Origin: a plasmid
Reading direction: 5' to 3' (one strand)
Length of the DNA: 64,000 nucleotides
Assembly: GCF_053078305.1 (NCBI RefSeq)
Contig: NZ_CP166875.1
Below the pieces are notes generated by a model. It was not told the origin of the DNA and did not search any database. It was given only the letters and a program-made list of their open reading frames with translations. How positions within the stretch are numbered: position 1 is the first letter of the stretch; each line of letters begins with the position of its first letter. The position numbers and the translations under genes are program-made. Of the stretch, positions 5,756-32,546 are shown one piece after another.

Positions 5756-6138
5756 AATTCGTTAGTTCACAGGAAATGATTGAGTTTCATGACCGCTTGA
5801 TTTCGCGTGATGGTGGCGTGGCGGGTATGCCAGAACCCGGTCGCGCTGACGCGATCATTCATCGTGTTTTGAACATGTATCATTATGAAGGTGTGACAGA
5901 TATTATGGATCTGGCTGCCGTGTATTTAGTTGCTATTGCTCGTGGTCACATTTTCAACGATGCAAATAAGCGAACAGCCTTGTTTGTTGCACAGGTTTTT
6001 TTAAAACGGAATGGTATACATATTATTAGTTCGCGTATTTCGTTTGATGAAATGCAAATTATCGCTTTGAATGCTGCAACAGGAGAATATAACTGGAAGA
6101 TGGTTTCTGACCATCTTAAAGCCATTATTTTAAATTAG
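5752..6138 (+). CDS. doc: Doc (death-on-curing) toxin, Fic/Doc family
   Basis: 128 aa with the Fic/Doc motif HIFNDANKRTA; translationally coupled to phd. Confidence 0.85.
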   Translation: MKFVSSQEMIEFHDRLISRDGGVAGMPEPGRADAIIHRVLNMYHYEGVTDIMDLAAVYLVAIARGHIFNDANKRTALFVAQVFLKRNGIHIISSRISFDEMQIIALNAATGEYNWKMVSDHLKAIILN

Positions 6139-6709
6139 ATATAGATATCCAATCAGCAGCATTTTACAATCTACTGAGCAATGTAAAAATCATATATCTT
6201 TTTGCTATATAATTTCTGGCGTATGTGCTCAATTCAGACCTGACACTTTTCCGCTTCCTCGCCCACTCGCTCACTACGTTCGGTCGCTGGGGCTGCGGCG
6301 AGCGTTTGTAAGTTTTCTCCAATACTGACGACGTGCTTCCTAGGACAATGAGTCTCTCAGAATCGGTTTCTCGAAGTGACGAGCGATCAGAATGGAGACA
6401 AATAAATTCGGGAAACGAACCTTCACGGTAAGTTTTGTCACATTTATCATCCCTAAACATGAGAATTATCACCAAAACTAACCACCCAACAAACAGCAGC
6501 GCCGGGAGCAGCATTATAAAATCATGTACAGTGTTGCGTAACGACATGATAAGTTCTCAATATGCTCTTTACCAGATTATACCAGTGATACTTTAACGCA
6601 CCATCATTAATGCTAATGTATGCATACATTAGCATTAACATGCTGACAGCAACAAGCGGCGGATTTACGTCTGGATAACGTAAATGATTGCGGTATACAG
6701 GCCAGGCGG

Positions 6710-7558
6710 TCAGATTTTCAGCCGTGCCTGTTCCTGCAGCAGTTCCAGATGATATGTAGCAATAGCGTTTACCACCCCTGCCGTCATCCGTGCGTCGGCG
6801 ATCGCTGAGTGTGCCTGCCCTTCCCAGGTCAGTCCGGCCTGGCTGGCAGCACAGGCCAGTGAAATCGTGCCATAGCGGTTGGTGGCCCCATAATATCCTG
6901 CAGCCAGCTCCATCGCACAATATACCGTCAGTTCTTCCAGCCAGTCAGCCGGATCGCTATGTGCGGCAGCAGTCTGTTTCAGAATGCGGATATCGAACCG
7001 GGCATTAAAGATAATTACTGGTCGGTCCCCGATTGCATGCCGCAGTTGCCGCGCCACATCTGTCCATGATGGTGCGCCGCAGAGTGCCTGCTCACTGATA
7101 CCATGCACGGCGGCGGCCTGCGCCCCGATGGCGACCGTGGGCTTCAGCCTGGTTTCAAACACCACCTGACCGGCCGCATCGGTCAGGCCGATTTCCAGGG
7201 CTTCCGAGGTATTATCCAGTCCTGTCGTTTCAGTATCCAGAAAGAGTGGTGCCAGACTCAGCCAGTCATATGCCTGCCGTGCCATCCGGCCACTGGTGCT
7301 GTTTAGTCGGGATAAAACGGAAAGCCGCTGGCCAGCCAGCTGTTGTTTACTCGTCAGAGGGCGTTTCTCACGCATCGGAACACAATCTGCAATTCGGTAT
7401 ACAGCGAACCTGCCACCATAAGTATTTTTATACCACTTAACCGGCTCAGCACCGGGGGCTGGCTTCATTCTGAATTCATCGCGCAGACGTCCTTTCGAGA
7501 AACACCTGTCTTCGGCAATCGCCTGCGCACGTCTGGTGACCAGCTCATCATTATTCAT
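6710..7558 (-). CDS. DEDDh 3'-5' exonuclease (DnaQ-like) with about 100-aa N-terminal extension
   Basis: 282 aa; Exo I motif FLDTETTGL, Exo II IIFNARFDIRIL, Exo III HSAIADARM; same strand and 45 bp downstream of the RelE/ParE-like toxin gene. Confidence 0.75.
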   Translation of the reverse strand: MNNDELVTRRAQAIAEDRCFSKGRLRDEFRMKPAPGAEPVKWYKNTYGGRFAVYRIADCVPMREKRPLTSKQQLAGQRLSVLSRLNSTSGRMARQAYDWLSLAPLFLDTETTGLDNTSEALEIGLTDAAGQVVFETRLKPTVAIGAQAAAVHGISEQALCGAPSWTDVARQLRHAIGDRPVIIFNARFDIRILKQTAAAHSDPADWLEELTVYCAMELAAGYYGATNRYGTISLACAASQAGLTWEGQAHSAIADARMTAGVVNAIATYHLELLQEQARLKI

Positions 7559-27572: not shown

Positions 27573-28937
27573 ATGCAAAAAGACGACGATAAAGGTTTTG
27601 TTCTGTTTGAAATTCTGGCCGGACTGATTGTGATCGGTATCGCCACACCAATGATTTATTCAGAAATTGAAAACTGGCTGAATGAGCAGCTTTACCAGAG
27701 TGCTGCATATCATGCAGATGCCTACAATACCGCAGCCAGAAACTATATTGCCGACAACAATGCCCGTCTGCATAGCGGCAGCCTTCCGGCAAATTTCACG
27801 GCTGATGATCTGATTCGTCAGGGATATCTGAAACAGGGGTTTAACCATTCTCCGTTTGGTCAGAGTTATATCACCGGTATCCGCCGTAACCAGACCACCG
27901 GGCGTCTGGAAGCCCTGACCTGCTCAACTGGAGGGCAGACAATCAAAGAAGAAGGGCTGCGTAGTGTGGCGGGTCAGTTGCCGGGGCTGGGTGGATTTAT
28001 CAGCAAAAACGGAACGGCAACAGGCGCATTCGGAGCCTGGACAGATAAACCGGGAGACTACGGACTTACCTGTTCGACAGGTCACATCGCCGTCGTCATG
28101 AGCGGTGATGACCTGCAGGAAAGTGACCGTCTCTACCGTTTTCAGGTAGCAGGTCGTCCTGAACTGAATCAGATGCATACTGCAATAAATATGGGCGGGA
28201 ATAACATAAACAACACCGGCAATATCAATGGTCAGAGTGCCACACTGAAAGGTGATATTACGAGTGAAGACGGCTGGCTAATCACCAGAAACAATAAGGG
28301 ATGGATGAATATCACACATGGTGGTGGATTCACCATGACGGACAGCCAGTGGATACGCGCGGTTAATGGCAAAGGCATCACAACCACCGGGGAAATCAAA
28401 GGGGGGAAAGTCAGTGGTGGTACAGTCCGGTCTGACGGTCGTCTTTCAACCGGGGAGTATTTACAGCTTGATAAAACAGCTACGGCAGGCACAAAGTGTT
28501 CACCGGACGGACTTGTAGGCCGCACCAGTACAGGGGCCATACTTTCGTGCCAATCCGGTATGTGGGCAGGTTTTGAATCCTACCCTGTCGGAAGCCCTAT
28601 ACCGTGGCCATCAGCCACCCCTCCACAAGGCTACCTGGTGATGAACGGGCAGTCATTTTCATGTTCCCGGTATCCTCAGCTTGCCCGTGCTTATCCCGGG
28701 TGTAAGCTGCCGGATTTGCGCGGTGTTTTTATCCGTGGCTGGGACAACGGACGTGGGCTGGATGGAGATCGGAACAGACATCTCCTGAGTTATCAGGCCG
28801 ATCAATCCGGTGTCTATCATGAGCGTGGGGGATGGCTGAAAGGGCATCACAGCGGTATGCCTTACTGGGCCCAGGGAAGCACAACGGAAATGCGCCCCAA
28901 AAACATTGCCTTTAACTACATCGTCAAAGCAAGCTGA
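27573..28937 (+). CDS. pilV: minor pilin / adhesin PilV (shufflon-variable C-terminus)
   Basis: ATG 27573 with GGAGGG Shine-Dalgarno; prepilin-like leader MQKDDDKG followed by FVLFEILAGLIVIGIA; constant region ends at the 19-bp sfx repeat at 28547-28565. Confidence 0.8.
   Translation: MQKDDDKGFVLFEILAGLIVIGIATPMIYSEIENWLNEQLYQSAAYHADAYNTAARNYIADNNARLHSGSLPANFTADDLIRQGYLKQGFNHSPFGQSYITGIRRNQTTGRLEALTCSTGGQTIKEEGLRSVAGQLPGLGGFISKNGTATGAFGAWTDKPGDYGLTCSTGHIAVVMSGDDLQESDRLYRFQVAGRPELNQMHTAINMGGNNINNTGNINGQSATLKGDITSEDGWLITRNNKGWMNITHGGGFTMTDSQWIRAVNGKGITTTGEIKGGKVSGGTVRSDGRLSTGEYLQLDKTATAGTKCSPDGLVGRTSTGAILSCQSGMWAGFESYPVGSPIPWPSATPPQGYLVMNGQSFSCSRYPQLARAYPGCKLPDLRGVFIRGWDNGRGLDGDRNRHLLSYQADQSGVYHERGGWLKGHHSGMPYWAQGSTTEMRPKNIAFNYIVKAS
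28547..28565 (+). repeat. shufflon 19-bp recombination site (sfx) inside pilV
   Basis: GTGCCAATCCGGTATGTGG; inverted copies at 29183-29201 and 29471-29489. Confidence 0.8.
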
Positions 28938-29182: not shown

Positions 29183-29201
29183 CCAGACACCGGATTGGCA
29201 C
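29183..29201 (-). repeat. shufflon 19-bp recombination site (sfx)
   Basis: Reverse complement GTGCCAATCCGGTGTCTGG; inverted relative to 28547-28565. Confidence 0.8.
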
Positions 29202-29224
29202 GCTGGCTACTGCCTGACGCTTAA

Positions 29225-29470: not shown

Positions 29471-29489
29471 CCAGACACCGGATTGGCAC
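29471..29489 (-). repeat. shufflon 19-bp recombination site (sfx) adjacent to rci
   Basis: Reverse complement GTGCCAATCCGGTGTCTGG, identical to the copy at 29183-29201. Confidence 0.8.
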
Positions 29490-29551
29490 GAAAGTATTGC
29501 ATTTCTGTATCCAGCCTCCTACCTTCCCCGTTTTTATCGTGGAAGGCAGAT

Positions 29552-30721
29552 ATGTTTCAAAAAAACAAAACTCGCAAAATGTCCCTCAGCCGGGCACTGG
29601 ACAAATACCTGAAGACTGTTTCCGTCCATAAAAAAGGTCATCTGCAGGAGTTTTATCGCGTCAATGTGATTAAACGTCACCCTATGGCCGATCGCTATAT
29701 GGATGAAATCACTACCATTGATATCGCCAGTTACCGGGATCAGCGTTTAGCTCAAATTAACCCACGAACAGGGCGTCAAATCACCGGAAATACCGTCCGT
29801 CTTGAACTTGCCCTTTTATCATCATTATTCAATATCGCCCGTGTGGAATGGGGAACATGCCGTATGAATCCTGTTGAACTGGTCCGAAAACCGAAAATCA
29901 GTAATGGCCGCGACCGCCGACTGACTTCTGGTGAAGAACGCCGCCTTTCCCGCTATTTCAGGGACAAAAATCCGCAGCTCTACGTTATCTTCCATCTGGC
30001 TCTGGAAACAGCAATGCGCCAGGGAGAAATTCTCTCATTACGCTGGGAACACCTCGATTTGCAGCACGGCGTGGCGCATCTTCCTGAAACGAAAAATGGC
30101 TCACCACGCGATGTCCCACTCTCCCGGAAAGCACGTAACTACCTGCAAATTCTGCCACAACAGATAAACGGCAATGTGTTCAGTTACACCTCGTCCGGTT
30201 TCAAAAGCGCCTGGCGTACCACTCTTCTGGATCTGAAAATAGAAAATCTGCATTTTCACGATCTCCGCCATGAGGCCATCAGCCGTTTGTTCGAGCTCGG
30301 CACACTGAACGTTATGGAGATTGCAGCCATTTCCGGTCACCGCTCCCTGAACATGTTGAAACGGTACACACATCTCCGGGCATATCACCTGGTCAGTAAA
30401 CTCGATGCAAGGCGTAAACAGACCAGCAAAATTTCCCCTTATTTTGTTCCCTACCCTGCAACTGTCAGAAACAGAAACGGAGTGTTCATTGTGACACTGC
30501 ACGATTTCGACCTTGAAAGCCGTGCTGAAACCCGGGAACTGGCAATATCTCACGCCAGCGTATTGTTGCTGCGCGCACTGGCCCAGGCTGCTCAGCGGGG
30601 TGAACGCGTCCCCACACCAGGCGAGCTACCCGCAAACATTGATGAACGGGTCATGATTTGTCCGTTAACAAACAGCCAGTTCATGACAAAAGCGAACAGT
30701 ATTTTCATATCCTCCTCCTGA
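29552..30721 (+). CDS. rci: shufflon-specific tyrosine recombinase Rci
   Basis: Tyrosine-recombinase motifs (...[20 protein letters not shown]..., [17 protein letters not shown], ...LKRYTHL); located just past the last sfx repeat; start taken at ATG 29552 (GGAAGG Shine-Dalgarno). Confidence 0.85.
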
Positions 30722-30732
30722 ACAAATAATTT

Positions 30733-31053
30733 TTGTTCAAAATTAACGCTATGAGACCCTTTATGAAACACTTATCCTCCCGTGCAGCCACTGCGGATAA
30801 TAATCGTATCGTAACAATTGAAGACGTTTACACAATCGCATTCTCGCAACCAATTCACACCGAATCAGCGTTGGGGCAAAGGTGGATGTTGATCCATACT
30901 GGTGAATATGAAAGTGCCAGCGATGCAAAACGCTTCCTTGATACGCTCGTCACCGGGCACTGTGCTTGCATGGTAACACCATCACCTGTTCTGGATCATG
31001 ACACCTGGCTGCGTATCCGCCTGCTGATGGGCGAGATAAGGGATGCCAAATAA
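30733..31053 (+). CDS. hypothetical protein (traE position of I-type transfer region)
   Basis: 106-aa ORF directly after rci. Confidence 0.3.
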   Translation: MFKINAMRPFMKHLSSRAATADNNRIVTIEDVYTIAFSQPIHTESALGQRWMLIHTGEYESASDAKRFLDTLVTGHCACMVTPSPVLDHDTWLRIRLLMGEIRDAK

Positions 31054-31144
31054 ACATTCATGGCCCCAACACATAAAAATAACGCCGGGGACTCTGGCAG
31101 AGGTACCATTCTTTTTACATAGAGCCAATATATAAACAACTTTT

Positions 31145-31465
31145 CTATGATAATATCTTTATCATGTTATAAATAATTGCCCCCTCAGCAGAAAGGGCCC
31201 AAATAGAAAAAGCAAAAATCCTTATAAAAATATTCTTTACAAGCGTTCCTATATACAAACAAACTATATAAACCAGCCAGAACAGAATGACTGCAAAAGA
31301 AACACACACGGCCCCCATAAAAATAAATGTCATCGAATCCCATGGTTTCACCAGTACAACCGGAACCATGGCTGCCAGAACAATAAGAGCAGCATTACCC
31401 AACAGCGTCTCTCGAATAATATCCCTTATAATCTCCAGTTTTTCTTTATGCTGTTTAATTTTCAT
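31145..31465 (-). CDS. small polytopic membrane protein, opposite strand
   Basis: 106-aa AT-rich ORF with three hydrophobic segments, antisense to the transfer operon. Confidence 0.3.
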   Translation of the reverse strand: MKIKQHKEKLEIIRDIIRETLLGNAALIVLAAMVPVVLVKPWDSMTFIFMGAVCVSFAVILFWLVYIVCLYIGTLVKNIFIRIFAFSIWALSAEGAIIYNMIKILS

Positions 31466-31724
31466 ACGAACCTCGTTGATTTCATCCCGAAAAGGAAAAG
31501 ATTATATAACGAAATACTTTCAATCTCCTGACTCCGTCTGCTCTGCAGCATAATGCCAGACCAGCGGCATGCTAAATCACGTCCTGTCCGAATCCTTTTC
31601 ATTCACGCTTAAAACAGAGTTAAAAGCACTCTTGAAACACACTCGATCATAACGATCGAAATAACTCGTTTCCGTTCAGTAAACACGCTCTTTAGACTTA
31701 ACATATGAACCGCACGGAGGTGAA

Positions 31725-32546
31725 ATGAAACCCAACAGCACAGGCATTGCTGCCCGCATGATGCTCTCCATTGACAGGGCCCGGATTAGCGAAGCTCTGC
31801 TCAATAACCGCCAGTTGCAGTCCACTCCCCTGCAGATCCGTTATCCGCAGGGCGTCAGAGAAGCACTCGGAATAATGAGCGAGCAACTCTCCCTTTCTGT
31901 ATCCGACCTGACGCGTATCCTGGTCGAAGATGCATTAACTGAAATGTTTCTCCCGGCTGAAAACATCGTTCACCGTCTTATCTGCCGGACAGAACACATC
32001 ATGCAGGCACATGATGTCTGCGTAACAACGATGACAACGTTACTGGCTCCCTGGAATATCCGTCCTGCCGTTTTCCGTGACCCGGACAAACTCGCAGATT
32101 ATCTGACAGGAGAGATTCTGACGGCTCTGGCTGACTGGTTTTATCTCAACCCGGAATGGCTGAACGGCAGGGTACGTTATCCTTTAAGCCGTGCCGGTGA
32201 GTGGCCAGCAACACAGGATGCGTTCTGCCAGCTTATTTCAGCCAGCGATAATGTGGATATTATTCTCTGGCACAGTTTTCCTTTTGCCGGTGTTCATTCA
32301 CAGGAATATTGCGGTGTACTGTTCCGCAAGAAAAAAGAAATTAATAAAGCCATCATTTATCCTGTACTTTCTTTATCACCTGTAAGAATGAATAAGGAAA
32401 AAGAAAACTGGTTTCACACTGCCCGCAATTTATATGCAAAGACATCCGTCCGGACCGTAACGCTTCGTCCGGCACAGGCAGAATATCTGATGACAGGAAA
32501 AATATTACCTGCTGAGTTATTCAGTATACCGTTATTACCCTGGTAA
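31725..32546 (+). CDS. conjugal transfer protein, function unknown
   Basis: 273-aa ORF in the tra gene array. Confidence 0.35.
   Translation: MKPNSTGIAARMMLSIDRARISEALLNNRQLQSTPLQIRYPQGVREALGIMSEQLSLSVSDLTRILVEDALTEMFLPAENIVHRLICRTEHIMQAHDVCVTTMTTLLAPWNIRPAVFRDPDKLADYLTGEILTALADWFYLNPEWLNGRVRYPLSRAGEWPATQDAFCQLISASDNVDIILWHSFPFAGVHSQEYCGVLFRKKKEINKAIIYPVLSLSPVRMNKEKENWFHTARNLYAKTSVRTVTLRPAQAEYLMTGKILPAELFSIPLLPW

Follow-up and report, generated by a model that had tools for sequence, protein, structure and literature searches.

An unannotated relative of F plasmid ArtA encoded against the transfer genes between rci and traE of an I-complex plasmid

The rci–traE region

The DNA analysed here, referred to as the window, is a stretch of 64,000 nucleotides from the plasmid contig NZ_CP166875.1. 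It gives matches of 100% identity to IncK2/Z and related I-complex plasmids with an MPF_I transfer system. The genes that surround the locus of interest all lie on the plus strand and include pilV with a shufflon, rci, a 96-aa ORF (orf96), traE, traF, traH, traI, and traJ. According to the ORF listing and the annotation, rci occupies positions 29483-30721 (+) and traE occupies positions 31725-32546 (+). Sfx-like inverted repeats of 20-30 nt (90% complementary) are located at 28536-28565, 29183-29202, and 29471-29500. These repeats sit within and downstream of the 3' end of pilV and are consistent with an active-type shufflon beside rci.

One ORF in this region runs in the opposite direction. 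It spans 31145-31465 on the minus strand, starts with ATG, and encodes 106 amino acids plus a stop codon (MKIKQHKEKLEIIRDIIRETLLGNAALIVLAAMVPVVLVKPWDSMTFIFMGAVCVSFAVILFWLVYIVCLYIGTLVKNIFIRIFAFSIWALSAEGAIIYNMIKILS). PGAP labels the product as a "hypothetical protein" (WP_000695052.1). The G+C content of the ORF is 36.1% versus 51.0% for the whole window and 48-52% for rci, traE, and traF. A first-pass annotation of this DNA had described the ORF as AT-rich, on the opposite strand, and coding for a protein with three hydrophobic segments, and the ORF listing, the G+C content, and Kyte-Doolittle windows all bear this out. It had also placed the ORF between two plus-strand genes of the tra array. 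This is correct for the strand and for traE, but the left neighbour is the hypothetical orf96 and not a named tra gene. The ORF is assigned here as an artA-like coding sequence based on the frame itself, homology, dN/dS, three predicted helices, and a charge count. An overlapping plus-strand ORF at 31287-31553 (88 aa) was rejected as it is unsupported and the minus-strand frame is the conserved one.

The artA-like gene (-) and orf96 (+) make up the contents of a variable accessory slot (30722-31581) that extends from the stop codon of rci to the conserved leader of traE, with a left boundary that is approximate (alignment A2). The backbone leader before traE (31582-31724, +) follows. In the same alignment the sequence is near-invariant from about this point to the ATG of traE, and the leader (~140 bp) is kept in all of the I-complex plasmids compared, with or without an insert. 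A palindrome, CTCGATCATAACGATCGA, is located within the leader at 31642-31660. It could be an operator or an element of the rci terminator.

orf96 (30763-31053, +; PGAP CDS WP_000681898.1) codes for a soluble hypothetical protein and is convergent with the artA-like gene. The protein has no hydrophobic segments and no family matches in Pfam or NCBIfam. Its one similarity, to the C-terminal domain of NikR, is faint and non-significant (E 0.088). orf96 is found in ~200 PLSDB plasmids in variants that are 59-100% identical, independent of the presence of ArtA. It was rejected as a functional partner of the artA-like gene because its product is soluble and because pMS15236B has an ArtA-like gene without orf96 while pPK8275 has orf96 without an ArtA-like gene.

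Relationship to F plasmid ArtA

F ArtA (WP_000415566.1) is a protein of 104 aa whose gene, flanked by trbA and traQ, is on the opposite strand from the tra operon. BLASTP aligns the window protein with F ArtA at 35% identity over 91 aa (E 4e-11), and a tblastn search of PLSDB (7.3 Gb of plasmids) with the window protein reaches F-type artA loci at E 3e-5. The route to the F plasmid was a truncated relative that is labelled "toxin ArtA". The window protein and F ArtA have the N-terminal motif KEKLEIIRNIIRE(S/T)LLGNAA in common, and their N-terminal stretches are near-identical (KEKLEIIRNIIRESLLGNAA in F ArtA and KEKLEIIRDIIRETLLGNAA in the window protein). The first-pass annotation had proposed a homologue search. 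Relatives were indeed found, and the homology to F plasmid artA, which that annotation had missed, is the main point of the present analysis.

The ArtA family is small, as a joint profile of both groups retrieves only 44 clusters at E ≤ 1e-3 among 1.84 billion representative proteins. A search of 5.8 billion proteins returned only E. coli-type relatives, namely the same allele and full-length alleles of 111 aa and 112 aa that are 48-51% identical to the window protein. In PLSDB, cluster P0137 matched only 5 Klebsiella plasmids, cluster P0140 matched only the I-complex alleles, and cluster P0150 had no match.

The signature of the family is (L/F)ExIR(N/D)IIR(E/D)(S/T)LLGN ahead of three hydrophobic helices, in proteins ~100-120 aa long, and the window protein carries it (alignments A1 and A3). 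R14, I16, R18, G23, and W63 are at least 90% conserved in 22 diverse members. In most members helix 2, in which W63 lies, ends with Y-x-x-E-L, and helix 3 contains a Trp and a polar residue (E, Q, or N). All of the signature residues are kept in the window allele. The ORF shares the placement of the family as well, since it lies in a transfer cluster on the strand opposite to rci, orf96, traE, and traF. It is very probable that the ORF is a member of the ArtA family with a membrane nature. On sequence grounds, the gene is a new and unannotated member, in an MPF_I plasmid, of a known but uncharacterised family.

Evidence for a real gene

The length of the ORF alone is not evidence for a gene because chance alone gives the window many open frames this long. 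The chance of a stop-free run of 106 codons is ~5e-4 at 36% GC and 7e-3 at 51% GC, and the window has many longer antisense ORFs that are spurious. It is the homology and the substitution pattern that make the artA-like ORF more than a chance frame. When codons 1-30 of the window gene are compared with those of the 111-aa and 112-aa alleles (the sister alleles), pS is 0.47, pN is 0.05, and dN/dS is 0.07. Compared with F artA, the same codons have a pS of 0.78 for the window gene (0.93 for the two sister alleles) and a pN of 0.19, and the synonymous sites are saturated. The combination of a low pN with a high or saturated pS indicates that the N-terminus is conserved as a protein and not as DNA or RNA. 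Judged by these values, the first 30 codons are under strong purifying selection at the protein level. The remainder of the protein has a dN/dS of 0.4-0.55 and is faster-evolving yet still hydrophobic. The near-identity of the ~130 plasmid copies is a separate matter, as it is due to recent common descent and not to selection.

In view of its homologues and of the way its codons have changed, the artA-like ORF is a real small membrane-protein gene on a separate strand. The antisense membrane-protein gene that the first-pass annotation saw in the transfer region is therefore upheld by homology and purifying selection. The case named there against it, that the region is simply an AT-rich intergenic spacer, fails because there are homologues and selection at the protein level.

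Expression signals

A Shine-Dalgarno sequence, GAGG, can be read 5 nt upstream of the ATG (31471-31474, -), and F artA has GAGG with the identical 5-nt spacing. A lenient scan found a candidate -10 element, TATAAT, 35 nt upstream of the ATG (31501-31506, -). The candidate -35 region that goes with it is poor (AGGAGA at 31524-31529, -), and both sister alleles have TATCAT at the aligned -10 position. In F artA the sequence is TTTACA-18-TAATAT, which ends 32 nt before the ATG. No minus-strand promoter was found by a strict consensus scan, therefore the TATAAT remains a candidate only. The first-pass annotation had pointed to the reverse strand near 31466-31520 for promoter and ribosome-binding site signals. 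The GAGG and the TATAAT were found on inspection, but a good -35 element and a promoter that satisfies the strict scan were not.

Promoter activity and translation were reportedly shown for F artA by Wu and Ippen-Ihler in 1989. Like F artA, the artA-like gene would probably be transcribed from its own reverse-strand promoter. Expression from such a promoter would be uncoupled from transcription of the transfer genes and possibly opposed by it. The scan found no plus-strand terminator-like site between orf96 and traE, therefore transcription of the transfer strand could run antisense across the artA-like gene. A G+C-rich, terminator-like hairpin, GCCCTTTCTGCTGAGGGGGC, was found by the scan on the minus strand at 31179-31198, inside the 3' end of the coding sequence. 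Its tail, AATTATTTAT, is a weak T-run and its significance is doubtful. No RNA family in Rfam matched positions 30500-31900 at E ≤ 1.

Predicted structure and topology

Kyte-Doolittle windows place the hydrophobic stretches of the window protein at residues ~21-39, 45-72, and 79-100. The AlphaFold2 model has three helices (residues 2-39, 44-75, and 79-105) with a mean pLDDT of 77.8. There are 8 Lys and Arg residues on the N-terminus and loop 2 versus 2 on loop 1 and the C-terminus. This distribution predicts an N-in topology in which the N-terminal helix and the loop between helices 2 and 3 are cytoplasmic. The window protein is thus predicted to be an inner-membrane protein with three transmembrane helices and its N-terminus inside. 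The conserved N-terminal helix (residues ~7-26) is amphipathic with a hydrophobic moment of 0.4-0.5, and a Glu residue, E94, is found within helix 3. With an N-in topology the conserved motifs would be on the cytoplasmic face, and the variable parts would be in the membrane and the periplasm. The helices and the periplasmic parts do differ widely among the alleles. A Foldseek search of the model against the PDB returned only generic helical bundles (best E 1.4, none at E ≤ 0.001), and a profile search against PDB sequences returned only designed or unrelated helices.

Sister alleles and the convergent partner

The contents of the slot vary among related plasmids. In an IncI-gamma/K1 plasmid the slot is empty and only 212 bp long. 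The slot of pPK8275 holds orf93 and a gene for a lipoprotein of 181 aa. This predicted lipoprotein (L003:1911-2456, +) has a signal sequence that ends in the lipobox LSGC, has no family match, and takes the place of the ArtA-like gene in this slot in some IncK2/Z plasmids. The slot of pA16EC0070-1 holds orf93, a membrane ORF of 94 aa, and the 111-aa allele, and that of pMS15236B holds a membrane ORF of ~93 aa and the 112-aa allele. The 111-aa and 112-aa alleles (clusters P0022 and P0020, respectively) have the same slot, strand, and upstream region as the window gene. Their first ~30 residues are nearly identical to those of the window protein, whereas the overall identity is 48-51%.

Both sister alleles have a convergent, unannotated membrane ORF of ~93 aa but the window does not. 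This ORF is located at L002:2017-2301 (+) and at ~3290-3570 of L008 (transfer strand), codes for 93-94 aa, and overlaps the stop codon of the artA-like gene. The two versions share 52% identity (tblastn E 5e-27), and the ORF has been called as a gene in only a few database records. The arrangement in the sister plasmids mirrors that of trbA and artA in F. In the window, the 91 bp between the stop codon of orf96 and that of the artA-like gene contain no ORF, and there is no TrbA-like partner. About 380 bp are missing relative to pA16EC0070-1, and the C-terminus of the window protein is 5-6 residues shorter than those of the sister alleles. The window copy appears to be a 'solo' ArtA that has lost its usual convergent partner. 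A mechanism based on the pair can therefore not apply to it as such.

Outside the I-complex, genomic context was recovered for eleven members, with nine distant ones in addition to F and pRHB41. The ArtA-like gene is the sole backwards gene of a long, otherwise one-directional transfer operon in F and pRHB41, and likewise in five metagenomic F-type tra operons and one NCBI assembly. Its position in the operon differs, as it can be by traQ or trbB, by traV, or between trbI and the traW/traU region. One member is backwards in a non-tra operon (DUF4222, DUF5406, NfeD, Band_7, and a methyltransferase). Another member, on a short contig, is convergent with its neighbour and all of the other called genes are on the opposite strand. 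The context of one member is uninformative as its contig is <1 kb. The member from cluster P0135 is co-directional with its neighbours in a repA/parA region with no tra genes nearby, thus the anti-tra orientation is not universal. All three I-complex alleles are backwards between rci and traE.

In F and in 8/8 of the distant backwards contexts, the convergent gene codes for a TrbA-like partner, a small polytopic membrane protein (85-146 aa, 2-5 hydrophobic segments). The 3' ends of the artA-like gene and the partner gene often overlap by a few bases. The partners have weak sequence similarity to each other. The presence of a convergent TrbA-like partner is a regularity seen in the present comparison and not a published criterion. 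It fits the finding that trbA, trbG, and artA co-occur in F-like plasmids (PMC5102898). In the same study artA is outside the set of genes listed as essential for F transfer (PMC5102898).

A hypervariable island

The DNA of pA16EC0070-1 and pMS15236B is at least 90% identical outside the cassette and 35-60% identical over the C-terminal two-thirds of both convergent genes. The hypervariable island is sharply bounded (~2100-2520 of L002 compared with L008). Direct repeats flank the inserts at two loci. At a distant locus (L009) the trbA-like/artA-like module lies between two 81-bp direct copies of the traV start (83% identity; 5805-5885 and 6696-6776), and in pA16EC0070-1 the copies on either side of orf93 are 87 bp long and come from the rci 3' end (92% identity; L002:1405-1491 and 1915-2001). 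These flanking repeats suggest that the cassettes arrived by recombination with duplication.

The flank duplications at two insertion sites, together with an island centred on the convergent 3' ends, have led to a speculative proposal. ArtA and the TrbA-like protein might be a cognate pair carried on a mobile, co-diverging membrane cassette that inserts specifically, and in the anti-operon direction, in transfer operons of the unrelated types MPF_F and MPF_I. The proposal is more likely wrong than right by a wide measure. If it is true, the pair would serve, for example, in immunity, exclusion, or addiction coupled to conjugation, the collision of operon and cassette transcription would govern expression, and the solo ArtA of the window would be the orphan half of a pair.

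The same divergence could also be read as specificity. It has been known that TraS and ExcA-type specificity genes have a comparable pattern of allelic divergence, and here alleles of 48-51% identity lie in backbones of 90% identity or more, and the island of 35-60% DNA identity has sharp edges. A constitutive ArtA would then guard plasmid-bearing cells against redundant conjugation, pilus-specific phage, or a pore-forming bacteriocin, with the allelic diversity providing the specificity. Independent transcription would permit expression under tra repression, the alternative cargo of the slot is a lipoprotein, another envelope protein, and the colicin immunity proteins of the E1/Ia type resemble ArtA in size and three-helix build. 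However, the best-conserved parts of ArtA are cytoplasmic and not periplasmic, where incoming agents are met, similarity to exclusion, immunity, or defence families was not found, and the F artA mutants of Kathir and Ippen-Ihler (1991) reportedly have no transfer or phage-sensitivity phenotype. An exclusion or immunity-like role is therefore regarded as unlikely.

Prevalence and variants

Matches to the artA-like gene are present in 170/5426 complete E. coli genomes (~3%), and 143/5426 have this allele at full length. The matching places are on plasmids in 174 of 178 cases and on the chromosome in 4 of 178. The window allele is the commonest of the three, with 131 of the 175 PLSDB matches at 90% or more.

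Both the F-type and the I-type group contain many ArtA variants with truncations, frameshifts, or internal deletions. The abundant variants (clusters P0092, P0068, P0061, and P0028) include a 73-aa form that is found on 375 contigs. Forms of 91 aa and 97 aa have in-frame deletions in helix 2, and a frameshifted 71-aa form of the 112-aa allele is found on 26 contigs. The frequency of broken variants fits a dispensable or costly accessory gene. Because the slot is empty or otherwise filled in sister plasmids and broken variants are common, the artA-like gene of the window is, as far as the plasmid comparison goes, accessory cargo of the rci–traE slot.

Another reading is that the window gene is in decay or carried along neutrally, one half left over from a trbA-like/artA-like cassette and without function in this plasmid. 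The deletion of the partner gene, the loss of 5-6 residues from the C-terminus, the sister plasmids that have no artA-like gene, and the truncated members of the family would all agree with this. It is nevertheless very unlikely in light of the intact frame, the ribosome-binding site and candidate -10 element that have been kept, the full set of signature residues, and the standing of the window allele as the commonest of the three both in PLSDB and among the E. coli genomes.

Possible functions

To our knowledge, F artA, a gene of the best-studied conjugative plasmid, has stood as an orphan since 1989, and no function has been assigned to it in more than 30 years. Profile libraries, a structure library, and the searchable literature gave no function assignment for the ArtA family. 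Pfam, NCBIfam, PADLOC, and PHROGs had no significant match to the window protein, F ArtA, or the distant members. PADLOC returned no matches, and the best PHROG (E 0.078) is a family without an assigned function. Exclusion proteins (TraS, ExcA, and Eex) were not matched in Pfam or NCBIfam at E ≤ 1, and colicin immunity proteins were not matched in Pfam at E ≤ 1. There is also no linkage to a colicin gene among the immediate neighbours, which are only rci, orf96, and traE. The first-pass annotation had considered small antisense membrane proteins of this kind as candidates for exclusion or toxin-like functions. Neither function finds support, as there are no family matches, no antisense RNA in Rfam, and a size unlike that of type I toxins.

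Many NCBI and UniRef records of F-type ArtA (e.g., L007:2501-2815) carry the label "toxin ArtA", and the RefSeq record for F reads "protein ArtA". No experimental basis for the label was found in the full-text literature searched. It may come from a name collision with the ADP-ribosylating toxin ArtA of Salmonella. The other matches to "ArtA" in the literature, which are the Salmonella ArtAB toxin, the ArtA of S. aureus pSK41, and an artificial ArT/ArA system, were rejected as a basis for the label.

The many database records with this name are one reason to consider that ArtA could act in toxicity or addiction, such that ArtA harms the membrane when made in excess and is restrained either by the convergent TrbA-like gene or by antisense transcription from the transfer strand. 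The 3' ends of the convergent genes abut or overlap, which brings to mind type I toxin-antitoxin loci of the 3'-overlapping kind. Helix 3 contains a polar residue in most members, and the frequent frameshifted and internally deleted variants could mean that the gene is costly. However, the literature searched in full text lends no support to toxicity, the RefSeq name for F is neutral, and Rfam found no RNA. A protein of 106 aa with three helices is far larger than the known type I toxins, and the persistence of the window allele without a partner in ~130 plasmids is hard to square with a protein antidote. A toxin or addiction role is thus considered quite unlikely.

It is proposed instead that ArtA modulates the envelope or the mating apparatus without being essential. 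Its place would be the inner membrane, where it would probably form an oligomer or, if a TrbA-like protein is present, a pair with that protein, and its conserved cytoplasmic face would be the working surface. ArtA would not be part of the DNA-transfer machinery. Kathir and Ippen-Ihler reportedly found in 1991 that insertion mutants of F artA are still transfer-proficient and have no phage-sensitivity phenotype. The functional part of this account, a modulator that acts through its cytoplasmic face, is held with low confidence. The account as a whole, in which the identity of the gene and the functional proposal are blended, is held to be somewhat more probable than not.

For plasmid biology at large the result is incremental. 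It does mean that unannotated relatives of artA occur in I-complex resistance and virulence plasmids, that the window gene can be annotated as a member of the ArtA family, and that the "toxin ArtA" label calls for caution. The comparison provides several handles on ArtA, including the conserved cytoplasmic motif, the polar residue of helix 3, and the natural 'solo' and 'paired' alleles. The anti-operon orientation, the convergent membrane partner, and the hypervariable island are the parts that are worth following up.

Comparison with known systems

TraS, ExcA, and the E1/Ia colicin immunity proteins are, like ArtA, small AT-rich polytopic inner-membrane proteins of conjugative or colicin plasmids with strong allelic divergence. 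Sequence similarity between these proteins and ArtA was not detected, however, and the conserved residues of ArtA are cytoplasmic rather than periplasmic. The partners of these systems (traG, traY, or a colicin gene) are also not implicated for ArtA.

The type I toxins Hok, TisB, and TxpA are hydrophobic like ArtA, and read-through of the transfer strand would be antisense to the artA-like gene. Type I toxins are usually <60 aa with a single helix and a cis antisense RNA, and the window protein does not have this form. ArtA is two to four times larger than Hok, TisB, and TxpA, has three helices, and is not associated with a known antisense RNA family.

The closest known system is F ArtA itself. 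The two genes are found in different host systems, as F artA belongs to an MPF_F system and the window gene to an MPF_I system (IncK2/Z), where it is beside the shufflon recombinase gene rci and traE. F artA faces a convergent TrbA-like partner but the artA-like gene of the window has none. The helices of the two proteins are highly diverged, and the polar residue of helix 3 is Asn in F ArtA and Glu in the window protein. What the two have in common is a near-identical N-terminal motif, the same length class, the three-helix build, the spacing of the GAGG sequence, and a backwards position within a transfer cluster.
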